55,703 nucleotides of DNA, taken from positions 1 to 55,703 of the IMG/VR virus record IMGVR_UViG_3300009709_000006, one strand, 5' to 3'. Origin of the DNA: a virus. A program made the translations under genes and the position numbers. The notes under the pieces are model-generated. The model was not told where the DNA came from and searched no databases. It worked only from the letters and a program-made list of their open reading frames with translations. Positions within the stretch are counted from its first letter, which is position 1; each line of letters opens with the position of its first letter. Positions 1,849 to 55,703 of this stretch are shown here, in pieces.

Positions 1849-2423
1849 GCGGCCTCCGCTCGCTGGAGCGCAGCCGGGGCCACACCGATCATCGCCGCGA
1901 CAGTCTCAAGGACGGCTCGCTTGGAGGCGGCAAACTCTTTGGCGTCCATAGACCGCCGGTTTTGCGACTTGGCCTCCCGCACCACCACGATCGGCCCGCG
2001 GACCACGATGGCGGCGAATTGGTCTTTTGATCGTGCGAAGGCGGCCACCCGCAGCGCGGCGGCTTTTGTGCCCGCATCAATGATGGCTTCGTCGTAATAG
2101 CCGGCGTCGATCAGCGCCCGCTTGCGAAGGTGTTCCGGTGAGGGGAATTGGTCTGTGAGGTGTTCGGGCAGATTCTGCCAGGCCTCGCGTAGCCATGCGA
2201 ATTCATGGTTGTGGGTCGCCTGTGAACGCTGCTTCTCCTCAACCAGGGTGTAGACTTCGCCGATGACGTATTGGGCGTCGGCCTTTCGCTGGTAGCTTTT
2301 GAGCGGAACCATGGCGTCGCCCGTCCAACGCATTGGAACGGGCGCCAGGGCCGCGGAGCCACCAGCGACGGGGTTCTTAGCCCCGCCGCCGTCCTGGCTG
2401 CTATGGATGGGTGTGAAAGGCAT
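1845..2423 (-). CDS. Hypothetical protein downstream of recT (possibly DUF1367-like; tentative)
   Basis: ORF track. The ATG at 2423 overlaps the recT stop. The motif THNHEFAWLREAWQNLPE...LRKRALIDAGYY is recalled only loosely. Confidence 0.5.
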   Translation of the reverse strand: MPFTPIHSSQDGGGAKNPVAGGSAALAPVPMRWTGDAMVPLKSYQRKADAQYVIGEVYTLVEEKQRSQATHNHEFAWLREAWQNLPEHLTDQFPSPEHLRKRALIDAGYYDEAIIDAGTKAAALRVAAFARSKDQFAAIVVRGPIVVVREAKSQNRRSMDAKEFAASKRAVLETVAAMIGVAPAALQRAEAA

Positions 2424-3388
2424 CACGCGGCGTTCTCAGCCATGAATTGCTGATCGGCGGCGGCGAGGCGCGCGCGGGCCTTGTCGATTTCCCTTTTGAT
2501 CTCCAGCGCTTCGCCCTTAGAGCGCGCCCAGAACTCCTTAAGCGGCTGGGCGTTGACGCTTTCGAACCAGGTCAGTTTGGCGGCTCCAGAAACGTCGCGC
2601 AGAAACTCCGATATCCGGTCGGCCACCTTGCCGAGTTGCACGGATTCGATAGGCTCGTGCGGATCGAATTGAAACAGGATGCCGCCCCCGTTGACGCGGG
2701 CGAGGCGCTCTTGGGTTTGAAGGTTTTCGATGGCGTCGCTGGGCGTGACGTCCACAAGGGCGGCGCGATCCAATTCAGCGGCCTCGTAAAGGCCTGAAGT
2801 ATCCTCAGGGAAGGCCTTGCGTAGAGCCTGAGCTTCGGCGCATTTGCAGATCATGATCCGGCCCATTTTTGGCCAGTTGCCGTCAAGCTGCGAATTACCG
2901 GTCGGCAGGCGCTTGCCTTTTTCGTCGTTCCAAGCCCATTCGTCTCGAATAGGCGCGAATTCGTCCCAATAGGCGACGCCGCTTACAGGCTTCCAACCGC
3001 CGTCGCGCTGCGTATCTGCGATGTAGATTTTGACGACGGCCTTTACGATGCCGAGCGGATTTAGCGGCCCTTTGAGCGAAGGGTCATATTCGATCATAGC
3101 CTCTTCTTCGTCCGGCCGATAGCGACGGCTTCGCGCGGCGATCGTGCGCAGACCGTCAATTGTCGTGATGATCGACATGCGCCGCTTTTTCGGATCGTCC
3201 TTGTTAAAAACGATAGCGCTGATCTGCTTTCGAAACGGATCTAAGCCGGCGTTTCGTGCGACTGTGACGAACAGGTTGAACTCGTCATTATTGCAATCCT
3301 TGGCGACGGTGTCCTTGATCAGCTTGAGTTGCGCCGGGGAATAGACCGTCGCTGATGCGTTCAGGGCGACAAGAGCGTTCATGGTCAC
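2423..3388 (-). CDS. recT: RecT/Bet-family single-strand annealing recombinase
   Basis: Motifs TIDGLRTIAARS...Y and MICKCAEAQALRKAFPE..SGLY are typical of RecT/Bet (PF03837-like). Confidence 0.8.
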   Translation of the reverse strand: MTMNALVALNASATVYSPAQLKLIKDTVAKDCNNDEFNLFVTVARNAGLDPFRKQISAIVFNKDDPKKRRMSIITTIDGLRTIAARSRRYRPDEEEAMIEYDPSLKGPLNPLGIVKAVVKIYIADTQRDGGWKPVSGVAYWDEFAPIRDEWAWNDEKGKRLPTGNSQLDGNWPKMGRIMICKCAEAQALRKAFPEDTSGLYEAAELDRAALVDVTPSDAIENLQTQERLARVNGGGILFQFDPHEPIESVQLGKVADRISEFLRDVSGAAKLTWFESVNAQPLKEFWARSKGEALEIKREIDKARARLAAADQQFMAENAA

Positions 3389-19272: not shown

Positions 19273-20253
19273 ATGTTGACTCAGCAGCAGGATTTAAACG
19301 ATCAAATCGACGCGGAAAGTAACTGTGAGCCATCGCTTGAAATGATCGGCCCCATTCCGTTCGTGACGCCTCCAGGATTTTCGGCGCCATGGTTTATTGA
19401 TCTGGCGTTAAAAGATATCCGCGCGCGCGTTGACCGCCAATCCCAAGCTGAACAGCCCGATTATCGCGCTCTATCCCAAGAAATTGGGGCAATTGAACGT
19501 CAGATTGGCACAACGGCGGATCACGTTATTCAGGCAACGCGTGGAATGCAATTCGAGGCAGTTTCCGGTCGCCGTTCAAGCTCCGCTAAGCGCCGCGAAA
19601 AGTTGAACAAGACACGTCAACTTTCATCGACGAATTTAAATCCATTACAGGCTAAACGTTTGGATAAGATAAATCGAAAAATCGCGGCTGCGATATCGGC
19701 AAAGGATGAAAGCAACTTACAAAAAGCATTTGCTGAGGCTCGAAGTTTTCAAGAATCACTTTCGGAAAATGCAAATTCGTCTTGGGCGGCTGACGCAGTC
19801 CAGGAAACTTTGACGCTTGCTCATAGGCGAGGGGAAGCTGTACGATCACGGATCGGCGGCGGCGCGGTACGGCGAACCCAATTAAATATTCTGCTCTCAA
19901 ATGAGGAACTGACCCCGGAACAATACGAGGCTGGCAAGAGATACGGACACTTAGTTGAAAAGCTTCTCTCACCTCGGATCAAGTCGTGCCTTGATGACTC
20001 GGGTGGTGGTTTTGGGGTTCGAGCCGCCGAATCGCGCGCCGCCGCTGTAGAGGAGCGCGCGCAGGTTTGGCAATGGCTACGCCATGACGCGCGGATGATA
20101 ACGCTGTTGGATCGCGTCTGCGTCAACGACGAAAGCCTACACGCTATCGCTCGTGGTGACACTAAACAGCGGGCGCGCTTGGCAGAGCGTTTAGTTGACA
20201 CTCTAGAAATTTTGGCCGCCAAATATGAGCGGCCGCGATCAGCCGCTGCATAA
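19273..20253 (+). CDS. Island gene C: hypothetical protein, 326 aa, helical/charged
   Basis: ORF track. Confidence 0.65.
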   Translation: MLTQQQDLNDQIDAESNCEPSLEMIGPIPFVTPPGFSAPWFIDLALKDIRARVDRQSQAEQPDYRALSQEIGAIERQIGTTADHVIQATRGMQFEAVSGRRSSSAKRREKLNKTRQLSSTNLNPLQAKRLDKINRKIAAAISAKDESNLQKAFAEARSFQESLSENANSSWAADAVQETLTLAHRRGEAVRSRIGGGAVRRTQLNILLSNEELTPEQYEAGKRYGHLVEKLLSPRIKSCLDDSGGGFGVRAAESRAAAVEERAQVWQWLRHDARMITLLDRVCVNDESLHAIARGDTKQRARLAERLVDTLEILAAKYERPRSAAA

Positions 20254-20336
20254 TAGTATTGACGCCGCCCCGGTTTTGTGCGACCTATTCGTCTATCGGT
20301 TGTTCCTGCGTTCGCAGGCAGCTAATCCATTCGCAG

Positions 20337-20368
20337 CCCCCGCAGCCTCACAGCGCGGGGGTTTGCGT
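20337..20368 (+). terminator. Rho-independent terminator
   Basis: Stem CCCCCGC (20337-20343) pairs with GCGGGGG (20355-20361), followed by TTTGCGTT. Confidence 0.6.
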
Positions 20369-20495
20369 TCTAAAAACGCCTAGCGCCCCATACGGCGCCA
20401 CGACCAGGGAAGTGAGCCGTCGATCCCCTCCGACGCACGTATCAGCGCGGAATGTCAAATATCGGACGTAAGGCGGCCTAGGCGTTTTAAGTTGA

Positions 20496-20571
20496 TGCGG
20501 AATAGGGAAGTAGCCATCCCGCCTGGTTCATACCCAGGAGATCGCCGGTGCGAATCCGGCTTCCGCTCCCA
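20496..20571 (+). tRNA. tRNA-like element, anticodon CAU (Met/Ile2-type), non-canonical T and D loops
   Basis: Hand-folded cloverleaf. Acceptor 20496-20502/20561-20567 (6 bp plus a U:U at 1:72). U8. D stem GGGA/UCCC. Anticodon stem CCUGG/CCAGG with loop UUCAUAC. Variable loop AGAUC. T stem GCCGG/CCGGC with loop UGCGAAU. Encoded CCA. Confidence 0.45.
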
Positions 20572-20656
20572 CCATCGCGCTCCACAACGCCGACCAATTC
20601 GCCCCCTTGTTGAGCGGCTGACGTGCTGAGCGCGATACCCATACCGGAGCAACGCC

Positions 20657-20974
20657 ATGCTCAAGCCGGTCTCAGACAGCCGTGTCGAGGCCGGCGCCTT
20701 GGCGATCTTCGCCGGTGGAAAATCAGAGCGACCCGCGCGCGCCAAGGCGGCCGCAGCCATGGCGCTTCCGATTGAGCTGGTAGAGCGCCTTGTCGGCCCG
20801 ATGGGCTTGGCCGCCATGATCCGCGACCAGGTCCGCGGCGCGACCTTCCTGCCGATCGCCAGCCTGCGCCGCGTCGGAGACCGCTGGGTGGCTGAGATAG
20901 AGTTCGCCGCTCCCATCGGGCCCGAGCGTCAATCCGCCCTTGTGGTGATGCTAGGCGTCAAAGTTAGGCGCTGA
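20657..20974 (+). CDS. Hypothetical protein
   Basis: ORF track. GGAG SD. The antisense Arg-rich ORF 20455-20916 was rejected. Confidence 0.5.
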   Translation: MLKPVSDSRVEAGALAIFAGGKSERPARAKAAAAMALPIELVERLVGPMGLAAMIRDQVRGATFLPIASLRRVGDRWVAEIEFAAPIGPERQSALVVMLGVKVRR

Positions 20975-23296: not shown

Positions 23297-23899
23297 ATGG
23301 CGTTTGATTGGGATGCGGTTGAGCGCGAATTTCGAACCGGACAAGATTCCGTGTCGAAAATCAGTAGAAAATTTGGCGTGAGCCATACCGCGATCAATAA
23401 GCGCGCCAAACGTGAAGGGTGGACAAGAAACCTGTTTCCAAAAGAGCAGAGTGAGGGTTTAGCTCCCAAGGTTTCAGCCGAGGTTGCAATTCCGGTTTCG
23501 GCCGCTTTGAAACCTGAAACTACAAAAAAGGAATATCCGAACTTAAAGCGCATTCCTCCTGGCCAAAGCGGCAATCCCGCAGGGCGCCCGGTGGGGTCGC
23601 GAAACAAGCTCGGCGAGGCGTTTATCGAAGCGCTCCACAACGATTTTACGGTTCATGGGCCGAAGGTCATTGAGACTGTCAGGGTCGATAAGCCCGATCA
23701 GTACCTAAAGGTCATCGCCACGATTTTGCCCAAGCAGGTCGAAATTAAAGAGGGCGCTTTTGATGGGATTGGCGATGAAGAACTCGCCGCTCTTCTCGTT
23801 GCAGCCCGATCGGCTCTCGGCGTTAATGGCGGCGATGGAGCGGGAACAAGCGCAGAGAATTTCGCGCAACCGACTGAAACACTATCGAAGCTACATTAA
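23297..23899 (+). CDS. terS: Terminase small subunit (HTH N-terminus, SGNPAGRP motif)
   Basis: SVSKISRKFGVSHTAINKRAKREGW plus GQSGNPAGRPVGSRNK. It lies immediately upstream of TerL. Confidence 0.6.
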   Translation: MAFDWDAVEREFRTGQDSVSKISRKFGVSHTAINKRAKREGWTRNLFPKEQSEGLAPKVSAEVAIPVSAALKPETTKKEYPNLKRIPPGQSGNPAGRPVGSRNKLGEAFIEALHNDFTVHGPKVIETVRVDKPDQYLKVIATILPKQVEIKEGAFDGIGDEELAALLVAARSALGVNGGDGAGTSAENFAQPTETLSKLH

Positions 23900-25211
23900 G
23901 CAGCAGGAGTTTCACGCGGCCGGGGCGAAATTCCGCGAGCGGCTTTTCATGGCCGGTAATCAGCTCGGTAAGACCCTGGCTGGCGGCGCTGAAGTGGCGA
24001 TGCACCTCACGGGACAATATCCCGCTTGGTGGGTTGGGAAACGATTTGATCGGCCGACAACGTGGATTGCTGGGTCGGAATCTGGCGAACTGACGCGCGA
24101 CGGTGTTCAGCGCATTATGCTAGGTCCCCCAAGCGATCAAACGGCGTGGGGGACGGGATGCATTCCGTTTGATGCATTGGTTGATACGAGTTCGCGGCCT
24201 GGCGTTGCTGATGCCGTAGCTACCATCGTAGTTAAACATGTCAGCGGCTTAAATTCGACATTGCTGCTTAAGAGCTACGATCAGGGGAGATCAAAGTGGC
24301 AGGCCAACACCGTTGACGGTGTGTGGTTTGACGAGGAGCCGCCGTTAGACGTTTATTCGGAAGGGCTGACGCGCGCAAACTCTACGTTTGGGCCGATCAT
24401 CGTCACATTCACGCCACTCAATGGTATGTCAGATGTTGTGACGCGGTTTTTGATGCCGCCCGCGGACGATAAAGGCGCCGCTGATCGCGCCGTCATCCAA
24501 ATGACGATTGAGGATGCGGAGCATTATACGCCTGAAGAACGGGCTAAGATTATCGCGTCGTATCCAGCCCACGAGCGGGAAGCGAGATCAAAGGGTATTC
24601 CCACGATGGGTTCCGGTCGGGTATTCCCGATTGAGGAATCGGCGATTACCTGTGAGCCGTTTGCAATTCCAAATCATTGGCCGCAGATAAACGGTTTAGA
24701 TTTCGGATGGGATCACCCTTTTGCGGCGACTAACATCGCATGGGATAGAGACGCAGACTGTGTTTATGTCTGTAAGGAATATGCAGCTCGCGAGACGACG
24801 CCGGTAATTCACGCGGCGTCAATTAAGCCCTGGGGCGATTGGATACCTTGCTCGTGGCCCCACGACGGGCTGCAACACGATAAAGGATCTGGCGAAGAGT
24901 TGGCCAAGCAGTACAAAGCGCAAGGCCTAAATATGTTGCCCGAAAAATCGACGTTCGCCGACGGCGGCAACGGGGTTGAGGCTGGCGTTATGGACATGCT
25001 CGACCGAATGCAAACCGGTCGATGGAAAGTGTTTTCGACGTGCGGCGGATGGTTTCAAGAATTTCGCCTTTATCACCGGAAAGACGGTGTGATCGTCAAG
25101 CTTAAGGATGATCGAATTTCGTCGTCGCGATACGCGCTGATGATGCTGCGTTTCGCAAAGACCAAGCCCCGCAGTTCTCAAATTATCATCCCTAATTTTG
25201 GAGCCGTGTGA
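23826..25211 (+). CDS. terL: Terminase large subunit
   Basis: QQEFHAAGAKFRERLFMAGNQLGKT (Walker A), YPAWWVGKRF, VWFDEEP (Walker B), and a C-terminal nuclease region. The start is uncertain (23760-23835). Confidence 0.85.
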   Translation: MAAMEREQAQRISRNRLKHYRSYIKQQEFHAAGAKFRERLFMAGNQLGKTLAGGAEVAMHLTGQYPAWWVGKRFDRPTTWIAGSESGELTRDGVQRIMLGPPSDQTAWGTGCIPFDALVDTSSRPGVADAVATIVVKHVSGLNSTLLLKSYDQGRSKWQANTVDGVWFDEEPPLDVYSEGLTRANSTFGPIIVTFTPLNGMSDVVTRFLMPPADDKGAADRAVIQMTIEDAEHYTPEERAKIIASYPAHEREARSKGIPTMGSGRVFPIEESAITCEPFAIPNHWPQINGLDFGWDHPFAATNIAWDRDADCVYVCKEYAARETTPVIHAASIKPWGDWIPCSWPHDGLQHDKGSGEELAKQYKAQGLNMLPEKSTFADGGNGVEAGVMDMLDRMQTGRWKVFSTCGGWFQEFRLYHRKDGVIVKLKDDRISSSRYALMMLRFAKTKPRSSQIIIPNFGAV

Positions 25212-25486
25212 TGTATAATGCCTACGCTCCAAAAGGCGGATTTCCGGTCACTCCAAGCGACACGGCCCCGCTGAATCCTGGAACCGGATATGGACCGACA
25301 GCCGGCACGCCGGTTCCGATCGCAACGCAGCTCTATATTGGGGGTGCGGGCAACGTTTCGCTGATCTCCGAAGACGGCAGCCCATTGCTTTACCAGGGTG
25401 TTCCTGCCGGATCGGTCATATGGATGCGGACGGTTCAGGTTAAAGCCACCGGCACAACGGCCACCAACATTTTAGCTCTGTACTGA
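25211..25486 (+). CDS. Hypothetical protein between terminase and portal
   Basis: ORF track. TGATG overlap. Confidence 0.55.
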   Translation: MYNAYAPKGGFPVTPSDTAPLNPGTGYGPTAGTPVPIATQLYIGGAGNVSLISEDGSPLLYQGVPAGSVIWMRTVQVKATGTTATNILALY

Positions 25487-27732
25487 TGAGAGACGAGGAG
25501 CTTTTACAGATTGTTCGCGGAGAGCGAGCGAGGTCGATCGGGTTTGACATTGATCCTGTGTTGCTGGCGGATCGAGAAAAGGCGCTCTTTTATTATAAGG
25601 GCGAGATGCCGGATGTTCCGTATTTGCCGAACCGCTCGAAGGCGGTATCGACCGATGTGGCGGACACCATTGAAACGATCATGCCTGATCTGGTGGAGAT
25701 TTTCACCGGCGGCGATGATGTGGCGAGTTTCATCCCGTCCAATCAGGCCGATGTTGAGGGCGCTCAGCAAGAGACTGAGTATCTTCACCATGTGATTTTC
25801 GGGACCAATGCAGGGTTTATGACGCTGTACACGTTCCTGAAAGACGCGCTGCTCGTTAAAACGGGCGTCGTGAAATGGTGGTGGGAGAATAAGCCCGAAC
25901 CGAAGCTCGAAACCTTCGAGGAGAAGACTGCGGCCGAGGTCGGTATGGCCATGCAGGATGGTGAGTTGGGCGACCTGAAGTTCGACGGCGTTCCCTATGA
26001 GATCGGGGACGATTTGCCGCCGGGCGCCGAAGATGCGCCGCTGTTCAGCTTCACAATGAAGAGCGAAGGCCCAGACGGCCAAGCGAAAATCCACGCCATT
26101 CCGCCAGAGGACTTCACGGTGTCGCGCGATTGCGTAACGCTGGCGGACACCACCTATTGCGCTTTCCGCTCCCGGCCGCGGGCTCAAAAGCTTAAGGAAG
26201 ATGGCCACGACCCAGCAATCGTTGATCGCCTTCCCCCTTATGGCTTGGCGCGAAACGAACAGGTTCAACTCGCGCGCGACACGGCGGGTGAGCACTATTT
26301 CCCCATTGGGTCAGACGGCCCAAACCGCGACATGCGTGCCGTGGAGGTGGTCGAACACTTTGTTCGAATTTACGACGACAAGGAAAAGCGCATCAAGATT
26401 TGGCGCGTGTTCACGGGTGGAAACGAGTCCATTCTGATCGACAAGGAAGAGGTTGATCAGATACCTTTTGCGGCCATCACGCCGTTTGTGGTTACGCACC
26501 GGTTTTATGGCGAATCCATCGCCGACAAAGTCATGGAAATCCAACGCATCAAGACGGCACTGATGCGGGGACAGCTTGACTATATCTACTTCAGCCTTAA
26601 TCAGCGCCATTACGTGGATATGCAGGCGGCAGATACATTCACGATTTCGGATTTACTGGATAATCGGCCTGGCGTACCCGTTCGCGGGAACGGGCCTAAC
26701 GCCGTAACAGCTCTTCAAACGGGTGGGCAACCAGCCCCATATCTTGAGGCGCTTGAGTATTTTTCGACCGTCGCGGAAAGTCGCACTGGCGTCGTGCGCA
26801 ACTCGCAGGGCCTCAACCCTGACACGCTGCACGACACGGCAGCCGGCGCCATGGCGCTCATGAACATGGCCCAACGACGGGTCAGGATGATCGCCCGCAT
26901 TTTCGCCGAGACCGGCGTGAAGGACATGTTCTTAGGCGTTCATGCCCTCATCCGAAAGCACGCCTCGCAAAAGCAAATCACGCGCCTAAGCGGAAAGTTC
27001 GTCGAAGTCGATCCGACCCAATGGGCCGAACGGACAGACATGACGATTGAGATCGGCGTCGGTGCGGGCGGCGCTCAGCAGAAGTTCGCATCTCTTACGA
27101 AGGTGATTGAACTCCAGGGTGAGATCGCGAAGGAACTGCCCTGCTCCGGGCTGGTTACGCCTGAGAACGCTTACAGGGCCATCGTGGATGCTTCCAAGGC
27201 GTCTGGCCTCAAATCTCCAGAGCAGTATTTCACCGATCCCGCGACGACGCCTCCTAAGCCGCCGGCTCCAAACCCTGATATGCTGAAGGTTCAAGCGCAG
27301 TCACAAGCTGATCAGGCCAAGTTGCAACAGAATGGCCAAGTCGAGCAGATGAAGGATGCGCGGGAGAAGATGGCGCTTCAGGCCGCTCACGAGCGTGAAT
27401 CTGCCAAACTCCAAGCGACGCAGCAGATCGACCAGGGGCGCCTGAGTTTGGACGCGCTGAAGCTTCAGCAGGAAAAAGAATTGGCCCTCGCCAAACTTCA
27501 ACAGGAGCGAGAGTTGGCAATCATGGAGATGCGAGCGAAGTACGGTATCGCAGCTATGAATGCCGCGACCCAGCTTCAGGTCCAGGCGTCAGAATCATCC
27601 GACGCTCAGGCCATGGCAGATGCTGATCGTCACCATGACATGACCAAGACGGCTTTGGATCACGCCAGATCGCTCCACGAGGACGTGATGGCTGATAAAA
27701 AGGTGGCAGAACAAAAGTCGGCGCCCCAATGA
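25486..27732 (+). CDS. Portal protein with long C-terminal coiled-coil (barrel-like) extension
   Basis: REKALFYYKGEMPDVPYLPNRSKAVSTDVADTIETIMPDLVEIFTGGDD is typical of P22/podovirus-type portals. The C-terminus is Q/A/K/L-rich heptads. Confidence 0.8.
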   Translation: MRDEELLQIVRGERARSIGFDIDPVLLADREKALFYYKGEMPDVPYLPNRSKAVSTDVADTIETIMPDLVEIFTGGDDVASFIPSNQADVEGAQQETEYLHHVIFGTNAGFMTLYTFLKDALLVKTGVVKWWWENKPEPKLETFEEKTAAEVGMAMQDGELGDLKFDGVPYEIGDDLPPGAEDAPLFSFTMKSEGPDGQAKIHAIPPEDFTVSRDCVTLADTTYCAFRSRPRAQKLKEDGHDPAIVDRLPPYGLARNEQVQLARDTAGEHYFPIGSDGPNRDMRAVEVVEHFVRIYDDKEKRIKIWRVFTGGNESILIDKEEVDQIPFAAITPFVVTHRFYGESIADKVMEIQRIKTALMRGQLDYIYFSLNQRHYVDMQAADTFTISDLLDNRPGVPVRGNGPNAVTALQTGGQPAPYLEALEYFSTVAESRTGVVRNSQGLNPDTLHDTAAGAMALMNMAQRRVRMIARIFAETGVKDMFLGVHALIRKHASQKQITRLSGKFVEVDPTQWAERTDMTIEIGVGAGGAQQKFASLTKVIELQGEIAKELPCSGLVTPENAYRAIVDASKASGLKSPEQYFTDPATTPPKPPAPNPDMLKVQAQSQADQAKLQQNGQVEQMKDAREKMALQAAHERESAKLQATQQIDQGRLSLDALKLQQEKELALAKLQQERELAIMEMRAKYGIAAMNAATQLQVQASESSDAQAMADADRHHDMTKTALDHARSLHEDVMADKKVAEQKSAPQ

Positions 27733-48352: not shown

Positions 48353-48559
48353 CCGTCCAACTCAACCTCAAACACCCTGTAAAAAGTGGGGTGAATATAG
48401 CCGGAACAGTTGGACGACACCCTTAAAATTCAATGCTAAACGTCAGATTTACACCGAGAGGGTCGGGGGTTCGAATCCCTCGCCGCCCACCAGATTCTAA
48501 AGGACTTTTTAGCTTTCGTGGCCAAAGCCGTCCAACTTTCTACCGGGAACCGTCCAACT
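48353..48559. other. attP region: tRNA-derived core flanked by arm-type repeats CCGTCCAACT
   Basis: CCGTCCAACT occurs at 48353-48362, 48528-48537 and 48550-48559, and inverted (AGTTGGACG) at 48408-48416. It lies next to the integrase. Confidence 0.6.
48461..48492 (+). other. 3' fragment of a tRNA gene (T arm + acceptor 3' strand + CCA), no 5' half present
   Basis: GGGGG-TTCGAAT-CCCTC-GCCGCCC-A-CCA. The matching 5' acceptor GGGCGGC, the D arm and the anticodon arm are absent upstream. Confidence 0.7.
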
Positions 48560-48580: not shown

Positions 48581-49744
48581 TCACGCCTTGATGAGTCCCC
48601 GCTTGATCTGCGCGTTTCGAGCGACTTGGCTGTCGCGTGGAAGGTACTTTTCCAGAATGTTCGTGGCGGAGCGCAAACTGTGTCCAGTGATCGCGGCGAT
48701 CTCTGGTATTTCGCAGCCAGCGCGTGCGAGCTGGACGACGCAGCTATGTCTCAGCCACCGCATCAAGAGTCCCTTTCTGGCCCCGTCCCTTTCGGCCTGA
48801 TCACGAACTTCGCTGAACACATGGCTAAGCCGATCTGAGGTATAGGCCTTACCTGTCACCTCATCCCGAAACAGAAAGAGCGCGCCATCGCCAGATGCGT
48901 TCAGGAGATCCCTCAGATTGTCTGAGACGGGCAACGTGACGTAGGCATTGGTCTTCTGTTGGCGAAACCGAAACATCCCCTCAGCGGGCAGATATTCGGC
49001 GCCAGGCCTAAATGATCTAACGTCGCCGAGCCGTTGGCCGATTTCCCATTCAAGCAGAATCATGAGCGCGATTGAGGGACGCCCCATGTCGCGCGCGACG
49101 GTGACGAAAGCGTCTATATCGGATTGCTCCCACACGCCGGCCATGGACTTTGGGACGTAGATTTTGATCCCCTCGCAGGGATTGTCCTGGCGCCATTTCT
49201 TTTCTATGGCCCGTTGCATGATCTGGCGCAGCGCGTCATAGGTTGAGCGCTTCGTTTGCGGCTTGTCGTTATAGAGCGCGAGAAAGGCCTTAACGCGGTC
49301 CGTGGTGATGCTGGTCGGGTCTGGGTGGTGGTTCGCTTCTGACCAGGCGAGAATGGCGTTGATGCTGGTGGTGTAGTTGCTCTGGGTCTTGGCGCTAAGG
49401 TGCCCCCAATCGCTCTGCCAAGCCCGCACAAGGGCTTTTAGCGTGCGCCCAGTCTCCTGCGTCGGTTTTCCAGATCGCCGCTCCTGAAGCTCCTTATAAA
49501 GTGCAGCGGCGTCACGTTGGATTTCGGCGACCTCGCGCGCGTCGGTTAAGTCGCCCCGTCGCTTACCTTGGCGGGGAAGCGGGATTGCTGGAGACCAATC
49601 GGACGGCCGGAGCCTTTCGGGAACCTGAAACAGAACCCGATGCGTTCCGTCCCTTCGCGGCTTTAGGACGACGTAGCGCCCGAGTTCGAGCTTCACGGAT
49701 GGCATCGGGATCGACGGCCCACGGATCTGCGTTAAGATTTTCAT
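48581..49744 (-). CDS. int: Tyrosine integrase
   Basis: The C-terminal catalytic region has MRWLRHSCVVQLARAGCEIPEIAAITGHSLRSATNILEKYL (R...HxxR...Y). It is adjacent to attP. Confidence 0.9.
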   Translation of the reverse strand: MKILTQIRGPSIPMPSVKLELGRYVVLKPRRDGTHRVLFQVPERLRPSDWSPAIPLPRQGKRRGDLTDAREVAEIQRDAAALYKELQERRSGKPTQETGRTLKALVRAWQSDWGHLSAKTQSNYTTSINAILAWSEANHHPDPTSITTDRVKAFLALYNDKPQTKRSTYDALRQIMQRAIEKKWRQDNPCEGIKIYVPKSMAGVWEQSDIDAFVTVARDMGRPSIALMILLEWEIGQRLGDVRSFRPGAEYLPAEGMFRFRQQKTNAYVTLPVSDNLRDLLNASGDGALFLFRDEVTGKAYTSDRLSHVFSEVRDQAERDGARKGLLMRWLRHSCVVQLARAGCEIPEIAAITGHSLRSATNILEKYLPRDSQVARNAQIKRGLIKA

Positions 49745-55134: not shown

Positions 55135-55703
55135 CTATGCCTCCTCAACCGCAACGGCGCCGACCGGAATCGTACCGTTCGCCTCGTGCTCCGCCACCTC
55201 CTCAATGTACGCGAGCGCCCATTCGTCAGGGATTGAGCTGAAGTCTTGGCATGGCCAACCTGGGTGCGCTTTTTGATGGATAAGCGCTCCAGCGGTCGAA
55301 AACCCAAATTCTTTTTGCAGTTTCCAACCGAGCTCGCCGCCCAAGTTAACAAGGTGGCCGGCAGTACACATTGCCGTGTTGCAGATATTTTCCTCTCGGA
55401 TGTAATGGCCAGGACCGAAGGTTGACTGTTTGAAAATACGCTCCCTCGCTTGAATGCCCTTCAAGATTTTTGTGTAGGGATTTTCGACCAGCGGAACTCG
55501 GTCAAACAGTTCTTGCACGTCGCTGGCGCTGTAGCCCGCCGACAGCACGTCGCTGGCGCTGTAGCCCGCCGACCGCAGGGCGCTGGCGCTGTAGCCCGCC
55601 GACCGCAAGGCGCTGGCGCTGTAGCCCGCCGACCGCAAGGCGCTGGCGCTGTAGCCCGCCGACAGCACGTCGCTGGCGCTGTAGCCCGCCGACAGCACGT
55701 CGC
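55135..55703 (-). CDS. C-terminal part of decapeptide-repeat protein (5' part is 1-281 across the junction)
   Basis: ORF track 55135-55698, open at the window edge. SAGYSAS units are followed by a ~130-aa non-repeat domain (QELFDRVPLVENPY...NTAMCTAGHLVNLGG...). Confidence 0.75.
   Translation of the reverse strand, partial: DVLSAGYSASDVLSAGYSASALRSAGYSASALRSAGYSASALRSAGYSASDVLSAGYSASDVQELFDRVPLVENPYTKILKGIQARERIFKQSTFGPGHYIREENICNTAMCTAGHLVNLGGELGWKLQKEFGFSTAGALIHQKAHPGWPCQDFSSIPDEWALAYIEEVAEHEANGTIPVGAVAVEEA
55519..55703. repeat. 30-bp tandem repeat array, right part (6.2 units)
   Basis: Same unit as 1-218. The last 73 nt are identical to nt 1-73. Confidence 0.95.

Follow-up and report, generated by a model that had tools for sequence, protein, structure and literature searches.

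The window analysed here is a stretch of viral DNA 55,703 nucleotides long (IMG/VR record IMGVR_UViG_3300009709_000006, positions 1 to 55,703), and its plus strand carries a tRNA gene with the anticodon CAU at 20496–20571. ARAGORN called this gene as tRNA-Met (anticodon CAT), the sole tRNA in the whole window. The Rfam tRNA covariance model RF00005 scored it at 54.4 bits, compared with a gathering score of 29 (E=5.5e-09 over the whole window), and position 1:72 is the sole non-standard pair in that alignment. The unconstrained minimum free energy (MFE) structure computed with ViennaRNA is also a cloverleaf (−29.9 kcal/mol; z=−2.09 relative to shuffled sequences), in which nucleotide 1 and the 3′ tail are unpaired. 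A first-pass annotation, made from the sequence alone, had proposed a CAU-bearing cloverleaf at this place and had named ARAGORN and covariance models as the means of checking it. Both bear the proposal out, the former with the exact coordinates and the latter with a score that is not sub-threshold. The feature is a real tRNA gene, not merely a tRNA-like one. Its parts are as follows.

20496–20571 (+): complete initiator-type tRNA gene, anticodon CAU, 76 nt with templated CCA (ARAGORN, Rfam and MFE fold)
20496–20502 (+): 5′ strand of the acceptor stem, UGCGGAA; U1 (20496) lies opposite U72 (20567), and G2, C3, G4 and G5 are those of Escherichia coli metZ
20505–20520 (+): D arm, stem GGGA/UCCC with G11:C24, loop AGUAGCCA; A18 (20512) and G19 (20513) as placed by the Rfam alignment
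20522–20538 (+): anticodon arm, stem CCUGG/CCAGG; 29:41 is U:A, 30:40 is G:C and 31:39 is G:C
20529–20531 (+): CAU, within the anticodon loop UUCAUAC, which has U32 and C38
20544–20560 (+): T arm, stem GCCGG/CCGGC, loop UGCGAAU; G55 (20550) and C56 (20551)
20561–20571 (+): 3′ strand of the acceptor stem, UUCCGCU, followed by the discriminator C73 (20568) and CCA (20569–20571)
20572–20574 (+): second CCA, outside the tRNA gene

The U:U apposition at 1:72 (which had been flagged as an initiator hallmark), the G in place of U at position 55 and the CCA encoded within CCACCA are thus all present. A second CCA follows the templated one in 2 of 102 unique initiator-like tRNA genes that template CCA, compared with 1.6 expected by chance; at this chance-level frequency, we rejected CCACCA as a degradation or processing signal. 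The D loop had been described as lacking G18 and G19. It does lack a GG dinucleotide, but the covariance alignment sets an A and a G (20512–20513) at the consensus positions of G18 and G19, and so only G18 is replaced (by A), whereas G19 is kept and could pair with C56.

Initiator-type determinants and their recurrence

We compared the window tRNA with three annotated E. coli K-12 genes taken by coordinate: metZ (initiator), metT (elongator) and ileX (Ile2). A blastn search of the window tRNA against E. coli genomes returned no match. Identity is 65% to metZ, 52% to metT and 50%, the lowest of the three, to ileX. Acceptor positions 2–5 read GCGG in the window tRNA and in metZ, GCUA in metT and GCCC in ileX. 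Position 26 is G and the 3′ strand of the T stem is CCGGC in both the window tRNA and metZ. The 11:24 pair is purine:pyrimidine (R:Y; G11:C24), as in metZ, and pyrimidine:purine (Y:R) in metT and ileX. With the 1:72 mismatch, these features place the window tRNA on the side of the initiator.

Further marks of an initiator are the CAU anticodon itself, the lack of a Watson–Crick pair at 1:72 (U1/U72, where the canonical combination is C1/A72), R11:Y24, and G2:C71 and C3:G70, both of which are formyltransferase determinants (PMC5389676). The major determinant for that enzyme is the 1:72 mismatch together with 2:71 and 3:70 (PMC5389676), and CCA is templated most often by initiator tRNA genes (PMC5143459).

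To collect relatives, we scanned IMG/VR with three patterns and GTDB genomes with one, and then applied ARAGORN and a purpose-written position parser. The first scan (CAU loop plus G55 T loop) yielded 13 viral contigs. For the second (G55 T loop together with CCA; any anticodon, D loop and 1:72 accepted) and the third, elbow-blind scan (the window anticodon arm only, with the elbow left free), figures cover the matches listed, and this scope applies to the counts of relatives given throughout. We defined a tRNA as initiator-like by its acceptor stem alone, that is, by CAU, G2:C71, C3:G70 and a non-Watson–Crick 1:72. The first pools contained 69 unique tRNAs of this class. All 69 have G30:C40, and 58 of them have R:Y at 11:24, compared with Y:R in 69 of 80 other CAU tRNAs. 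Position 1:72 is C/A in 30, U/U in 13, G/A in 9, C/U in 8, A/A in 4, C/C in 3 and something else in two; U/U is a common way for initiator-like tRNAs to stay unpaired at the acceptor stem's top. That the mismatch is kept while its bases vary (C/A, U/U, G/A, C/U, A/A) indicates selection for non-pairing. U1/U72 recurs in at least 8 viral contigs with G55, in 7 of 58 tRNAs of the elbow-blind sample and in Bordetella phage PHB09. The discriminator C73 is found in 6 of the 69, including those of Caulobacter phage phiCbK and of locus L219. Among the 69, only 9 have GC/GC/GC as their anticodon stem (29:41/30:40/31:39), whereas 12 have ua/GC/GC and 14 have au/GC/GC. The window anticodon arm is shared by no fewer than 58 further distinct viral CAU tRNAs.

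RNAalifold gives 25 relatives a consensus cloverleaf in which 1:72 is unpaired and 14 of the 20 pairs have undergone double, compensatory changes. G2:C71 is conserved in 24 of these relatives and C3:G70 and G30:C40 in all 25, whereas 4:69 to 7:66 vary freely and covary. Near-invariance at 2:71, 3:70 and 30:40 beside a variable 4:69–7:66 is what selection on formyltransferase and P-site determinants would be expected to produce. The nearest homologue of the window tRNA, at L219, is 87% identical and retains U/U, C73, the T arm and the elbow, with double changes at 7:66, 13:22 and 28:42. Its contig is phage-like, and a methyltransferase and a primosomal/replication protein are encoded upstream of it, as in the window. 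That contig is binned with a metagenome-assembled genome (MAG) of Stakelama, a sphingomonad, which is the only clue to a host. A tRNA identical to that of the window is found on contig L003, the neighbouring open reading frames (ORFs) of which are 85–100% identical.

On these determinants, we consider it probable that the gene encodes a functional, phage-borne methionine tRNA of the initiator type. Several observations weigh against this reading. The discriminator is C73 and not A73, the three G:C pairs at 29:41, 30:40 and 31:39 are incomplete (ua/GC/GC), U32/C38 replaces the Cm32–A38 pair, and the A37–(G29–C41) triple of E. coli tRNA-fMet (PMC2528185) cannot form as such. Around the gene, no sigma-70 consensus promoter was found in 20150–20750, although that consensus may not be the one used by the host. 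Almost none of 80 viral loci related through their terminase carries a tRNA, and the gene is thus dispensable for the lineage. Two of these relatives (59% terminase identity; L074 5049–5124 and L075 6782–6857) have a different CAU tRNA at the syntenic spot, about 3.2 kb upstream of the terminase. This tRNA has a normal elbow, Y11:R24 and the consecutive acceptor mismatches C1/C72 and G2/A71; being of a different type, it carries no information on the elbow.

The anticodon stem is no bar to an initiator, since Shetty et al. found that a ‘1st UA’ tRNA-fMet sustains E. coli lacking all initiator genes (PMC5389676). The crucial G:C pair of the tRNA-fMet anticodon stem is the middle one, and a first-pair A:U is natural in alphaproteobacterial tRNA-fMet (PMC5389676). 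The window tRNA has this middle pair, G30:C40, plus G31:C39. The first-pass annotation had counted the three G–C pairs as absent, which is correct for 29:41 (U:A) but not for the other two. Its reservations about an initiator do not stand, given G30:C40, G2:C71, C3:G70 and R11:Y24 and the recurrence of U/U and C73 in phage initiator-type tRNAs.

Two other identities are open to a tRNA with this anticodon. The gene could encode an elongator tRNA-Met that aids decoding of internal AUG codons, U/U at 1:72 being a tolerated defect. This would agree with the plain tRNA-Met label given by ARAGORN, with C73, with the presence of only two of the three G:C pairs and with the UUCAUAC loop, which is also found in 7 of the 80 other CAU tRNAs, of the G1:C72 type. 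Such an elongator should, however, have a Watson–Crick 1:72 and Y11:R24, where the window tRNA has U/U and G11:C24. The mismatch, G2:C71/C3:G70, R11:Y24 and G26 all side with the initiator, identity is lower to metT than to metZ, and the family keeps 1:72 unpaired while its bases vary; we regard an elongator as unlikely.

Alternatively, the product could be tRNA-Ile2, in which TilS would turn C34 into lysidine and AUA would be decoded as isoleucine. This would fit the CAU anticodon, and tRNAs for rare codons, AUA among them, are often found in phages. An ileX-type body would have G1:C72, the acceptor strand GGCCCCU and Y11:R24; the window tRNA differs in acceptor stem (GCGG versus GCCC at 2–5), at 1:72 and at 11:24 (R:Y, not Y:R), and is only 50% identical to ileX. 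Both ileX and the elongator-type CAU tRNAs of these loci have G1:C72 where it has a mismatch. The suggestion of a functional phage tRNA for either Met or Ile2 is therefore best narrowed to initiator-type Met, with Ile2 very improbable in view of the acceptor stem, of 11:24 and of position 26. The appropriate annotation is initiator-type tRNA-Met, and neither a tRNA-like oddity nor an attachment-site (att) relic.

The elbow at positions 18 and 55

The D-loop and T-loop deviations had been listed as separate oddities. Both are real, but they form one coupled change, which the earlier annotation missed. In the window tRNA, A18/G55 correspond to 20512/20550 and G19/C56 to 20513/20551. We assigned positions 18–19 geometrically over 1,075 unique tRNAs from the matches listed, and found the 18–19/55–56 states GG/UC in 541, AG/GC in 444, GG/GC in 14 and AG/UC in 6; as the samples are pattern-selected, these and the following elbow frequencies are not population estimates. 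At viral loci, an AG D loop accompanies 87 of 99 G55 tRNAs and GG accompanies 455 of 477 U55 tRNAs. At genome (GTDB) loci, the corresponding figures are 385 of 449 and 122 of 126. The elbow-blind sample has AG in 7 of 7 G55 tRNAs and GG in essentially all 48 U55 tRNAs, and the coupling holds in 25 of 25 aligned relatives. The D-loop and T-loop deviations thus amount to a single swap of A18/G55 for G18/U55, with G19:C56 kept. Clustering of the G55 initiator-like tRNAs at 85% identity gives 29 groups, which places the swap on many backbones; the alternative elbow seems to have been fixed repeatedly on different tRNAs and not to reflect damage.

In the crystal structure of E. coli tRNA-fMet, G18 makes a one-bond imino–carbonyl contact with pseudouridine 55 (Ψ55), and G19–C56 is the Watson–Crick pair at the corner of the L (PMC2528185). 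A18–G55 is most naturally read as a contact in place of G18–Ψ55, with a geometry that we infer and with the corner pair retained. We found no description of an A18/G55 elbow in the literature searched, which comprised open-access papers and bioRxiv only, and a description elsewhere is possible. G18–Ψ55 is taught as a near-universal tertiary contact of tRNA, and here a strict alternative is seen on hundreds of distinct tRNAs. If A18–G55 is merely isosteric, it is a clean natural covariation that would refine the structural rules of tRNA and their use in annotation.

Among phages, the swap is unevenly distributed. In the elbow-blind viral sample, G55 is present in 7 of 57 initiator-type tRNAs and in 2 of the 153 co-resident ones (Fisher test: p=0.0018; odds ratio, 10.6), roughly ten times more frequent on the former than on their neighbours. 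Where a G55 initiator-like tRNA is present (33 viral loci), G55 is found in only 9 of the 226 remaining tRNAs, and the co-resident tRNAs on L004, L005 and L006 are canonical. Phage use of the A18/G55 elbow seems to favour initiator-type tRNAs.

The elbow is also found in bacterial genomes. Loci of Patescibacteria (candidate phyla radiation, CPR) typically have three tRNAs, of which only a CAU one has G55; several of these are of the C1/A72 initiator type and others are G1:C72. Initiator-like CAU tRNAs with A18/G55 occur in Patescibacteria/CPR and similar MAGs at L230, L233, L234, L246, L249, L253, L265, L266, L272, L273, L281, L284 and L285. They have the canonical C1/A72, or in some cases U/U or C/U, and mostly stand beside two tRNAs with a normal elbow. 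Some CPR lineages may thus use the A18/G55 elbow on their native initiator.

Verrucomicrobiota loci show a different arrangement, with arrays of up to 22 tRNAs in 8 kb and G55-type T loops in nearly all isoacceptors. The arrays (L214, L220, L223–L225, L228, L229, L232, L254, L256, L258, L262, L264, L267–L269, L276, L277, L280 and L283) have the T loops TGCGAAT, TGCGAGT and AGCGTTA, with AG for GG in the D loop, and some are located on chromosomes of 5–9 Mb (5.2 Mb, 8.9 Mb). In appearance, they make up a full second set of tRNAs that bear the alternative elbow. The published study of long arrays of tRNAs that was examined (PMC8421152) makes no mention of it.

Separately, initiator-type CAU tRNAs on three viral contigs (L339, L352 and L395) have C55 (T loop TCCGAAT) together with a normal GG D loop, and near-identical tRNAs at L387, L400 and L312 have U55 instead. 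C55 is a further, third state of position 55 and leaves 18 as it is.

From the observed gene, its fold, its initiator-type determinants, their recurrence and the 18/55 coupling, a scheme can be proposed in which charging, formylation and use in initiation are predicted from sequence. The host MetRS would charge the tRNA through its CAU anticodon. The unpaired U1/U72, with G2:C71 and C3:G70, would make the Met-tRNA a substrate for the host formyltransferase and a poor ligand of EF-Tu, and G30:C40 with G31:C39 would permit P-site selection on the 30S subunit. During lytic growth, the phage would in this way supplement the pool with an initiator tRNA of its own, with the A18–G55 contact standing in for G18–Ψ55 and the corner pair G19:C56 retained.

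Any benefit of the elbow itself is a distinct matter. Our default is that the alternative elbow is neutral and structurally equivalent. It is doubtful, if worth stating, that A18–G55 is an adaptive re-wiring of the tRNA corner that provides escape from an elbow- or T-loop-directed nuclease or from a modification requirement, or that alters proofreading by IF3. G55 cannot be converted to pseudouridine. While the initiator is being accommodated in the P site, the N-terminal domain of IF3 contacts its G19, Ψ55, C56 and A57, and initiation fidelity falls when these contacts are broken (PMC9723500). A contact-dependent inhibition (CDI) toxin cleaves tRNA in the T loop, between the conserved T and Ψ (PMC9086364). 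The IF3 N-terminal domain, TruB, TrmA and T-loop nucleases may all read the same elbow surface. An adaptive elbow could give the phage a private initiation channel under its own control, U32/C38 could also resist VapC-type cleavage, and the Verrucomicrobiota arrays would be complete ‘shadow’ tRNA sets of the same kind. The tRNA elbow would then join the anticodon loop as a phage–host battleground, with phage control of translation initiation at stake.

The same surfaces bear on a further alternative, in which the RNA is a decoy or sponge that titrates or blocks a host tRNA-directed nuclease, or a defence protein that binds the elbow or the anticodon loop. Three surfaces read by proteins do differ from canonical tRNA-fMet, namely U32/C38, the 18/55 elbow and 1:72 with C73. 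Toxins that act at such places are known: VapC toxins, including one from the alphaproteobacterium Bosea, cut tRNA-fMet where the anticodon stem meets its loop (PMC8522696), and the CDI toxin acts on the T loop. Phage tRNAs with nuclease-blocking loop mutations near the cleavage sites have been proposed as counter-defence (PMC10264068). The determinants for charging, formylation and P-site binding are, however, all retained and are conserved across the family, and a pure decoy would not need them; nor did the analysis turn up a defence system or a nuclease. We regard a decoy as improbable beside a functional initiator-type tRNA.

Genome context and the att-type element

Other features of the window are listed below.

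2423–3388 (−): RecT
13.1–17.1 kb: DNA methyltransferase, DnaB-type helicase and HNH protein, upstream of the tRNA
20332–20369 (+): G+C-rich hairpin CCCCCGC...GCGGGGG followed by UUUGCGUU, after the upstream ORF 19273–20253; present in the MFE fold of 20320–20660
23760–25211: large terminase, downstream of the tRNA
25486–27732: portal, downstream of the tRNA
48458–48492 (+): canonical tRNA 3′ half GGTCGGGGGTTCGAATCCCTCGCCGCCCACCA, about 90 nt from the integrase gene
48581–49744 (−): tyrosine integrase

The portal, capsid and adaptor proteins have SU10-type Pfam domains, and by its gene content the window is a temperate phage, apparently an SU10-like podovirus. The tRNA gene sits where the replication module gives way to the packaging/late module; neither Pfam nor PHROGs assigned a function to the ORFs directly on either side of it. 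A near-identity search of 18–23 kb against cultured phages found no match and the portal homologues of cultured phages are at most 40% identical, so that the window has no annotated close relative. The window portal protein was matched on a metagenome contig alone (Logan SRR5829574), which has several ORFs 100% identical to those of the window. Among tRNA-bearing loci, only L003 and L213 share genes with the window; a Nitratireductor match (L271) carries no tRNA and was rejected as chance. At the window edge, ORF 55135–55698 (−) matches Pfam PF25296 (‘Decapeptide repeat region’, 69 bits) and is unrelated to the tRNA.

The hairpin at 20332–20369 was not called on the plus strand by a consensus terminator scan. 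It is tentatively a terminator, in which case the tRNA would be its own transcription unit or a read-through product. A perfect 11-bp inverted repeat, AAAACGCCTAG / CTAGGCGTTTT, lies at 20374–20384 / 20478–20488, brackets about 93 nt and ends 7 nt before the 5′ end of the tRNA. It forms a long hairpin in the MFE fold of 20320–20660 (z=−3.87), and this modelled hairpin could be a structured leader. The left arm overlaps a terminator-like site on the minus strand (20400–20381).

The tRNA 3′ half beside the integrase consists of a T arm (GGGGG-TTCGAAT-CCCTC), an acceptor 3′ strand (GCCGCCC) and ACCA. Rfam gave only a weak match to a tmRNA 3′ end (12.4 bits, E=0.03); 3:70 would be G:C, which makes an origin from a tRNA more likely than one from a tmRNA. 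This element is likely to be the attP core, which would imply integration into a host tRNA gene with the 5′ acceptor strand GGGCGGC.

This element also bears on the proposal that 20496–20571 is itself a relic att-type fragment, or a decaying pseudogene without function. Changes at the normally invariant positions 18 and 55 and the 1:72 mismatch could suggest decay, and temperate phages do carry tRNA fragments at attP. Yet an attP fragment is expected as a partial 3′ copy beside the integrase, which describes 48458–48492, whereas the gene at 20496–20571 is full length and 28 kb from the integrase. Its covariance score is far above threshold, the tRNA is identical in L003 even though neighbouring ORFs there are 85–100% identical, and its deviations are coupled and recurrent, not random. 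We rejected the att relic put forward in the first-pass annotation, and consider loss of function extremely unlikely.

Comparison with known systems

The window tRNA shares with the E. coli initiator genes metZ/metW/metV and metY the CAU anticodon, a non-Watson–Crick 1:72, G2:C71, C3:G70, G4:C69, G5, R11:Y24, G26, G30:C40, G31:C39, the T-stem 3′ strand CCGGC and a templated CCA. It differs from them in having U1/U72 for C1/A72, C73 for A73, U29:A41 for G29:C41, U32/C38 for C32/A38 and A18/G55 for G18/U55, with 65% identity overall. Comparable tRNAs are encoded by cultured phages.

Caulobacter phage phiCbK: initiator-like tRNA-Met with C1/U72 and C73
Bordetella phage PHB09 (L289 2978–3052): initiator-like tRNA with U1/U72; found by ARAGORN, unannotated in the GenBank record
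Ochrobactrum phage POI1126 (L290 2974–3048): initiator-like tRNA with A1/A72; found by ARAGORN, unannotated in the GenBank record
Phage CBW1004C-Prop1 (L288 2977–3052): initiator-like tRNA with C1/U72 and A18/G55; found by ARAGORN, unannotated in the GenBank record
Xanthomonas phage DoCa5 (L291 1577–1652): initiator-type tRNA; found by ARAGORN, unannotated in the GenBank record

The initiator-type tRNAs found by ARAGORN in these GenBank records represent annotation gaps in cultured phages. In phiCbK, PHB09, POI1126 and CBW1004C-Prop1, the acceptor stem has the design N-GCNNNN with a mismatched 1:72, as in the window, and three of the four have the UUCAUAC loop. The tRNAs of PHB09 and CBW1004C-Prop1 lie upstream of terminase genes, that of CBW1004C-Prop1 just downstream of the antiterminator Q. 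These four phages are themselves unrelated to the window phage. Only CBW1004C-Prop1 among them has A18/G55, and none joins U/U, C73 and the elbow as the window tRNA and its L219 homologue do.

The phage tRNAs described by van den Berg et al. (eLife 2023; PMC10264068) likewise have non-canonical bases flanking the anticodon (positions 32 and 38). Those are, however, elongator tRNAs altered in the anticodon loop, whereas the window tRNA is of the initiator type and departs most distinctively at the elbow. In the Shigella context, phages are stated to avoid tRNA-fMet genes as a rule (PMC10264068). In Staphylococcus, the D-loop GG and the T-loop U55/C56 are likewise not conserved in the non-proteinogenic tRNA-Gly used for cell-wall synthesis (PMC4574755). 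That tRNA has U19, has lost the corner pair and is diverted from the ribosome, whereas the window tRNA keeps G19:C56 and the determinants for translation; with G19 lost in one and kept in the other, we rejected the analogy as a mechanism. The eukaryotic cytoplasmic initiator tRNA has an initiator-specific T loop (A54, A60) and is a precedent for a class-specific elbow signature. It differs from the window tRNA in that positions 54/60 rather than 18/55 are involved and that it belongs to another domain of life, with no evidence of a common origin. Initiator-type tRNA-Met genes are thus already known from cultured phages; the example described here has most of the canonical initiator determinants, departs from them at 29:41 and 73, and carries the A18/G55 elbow.

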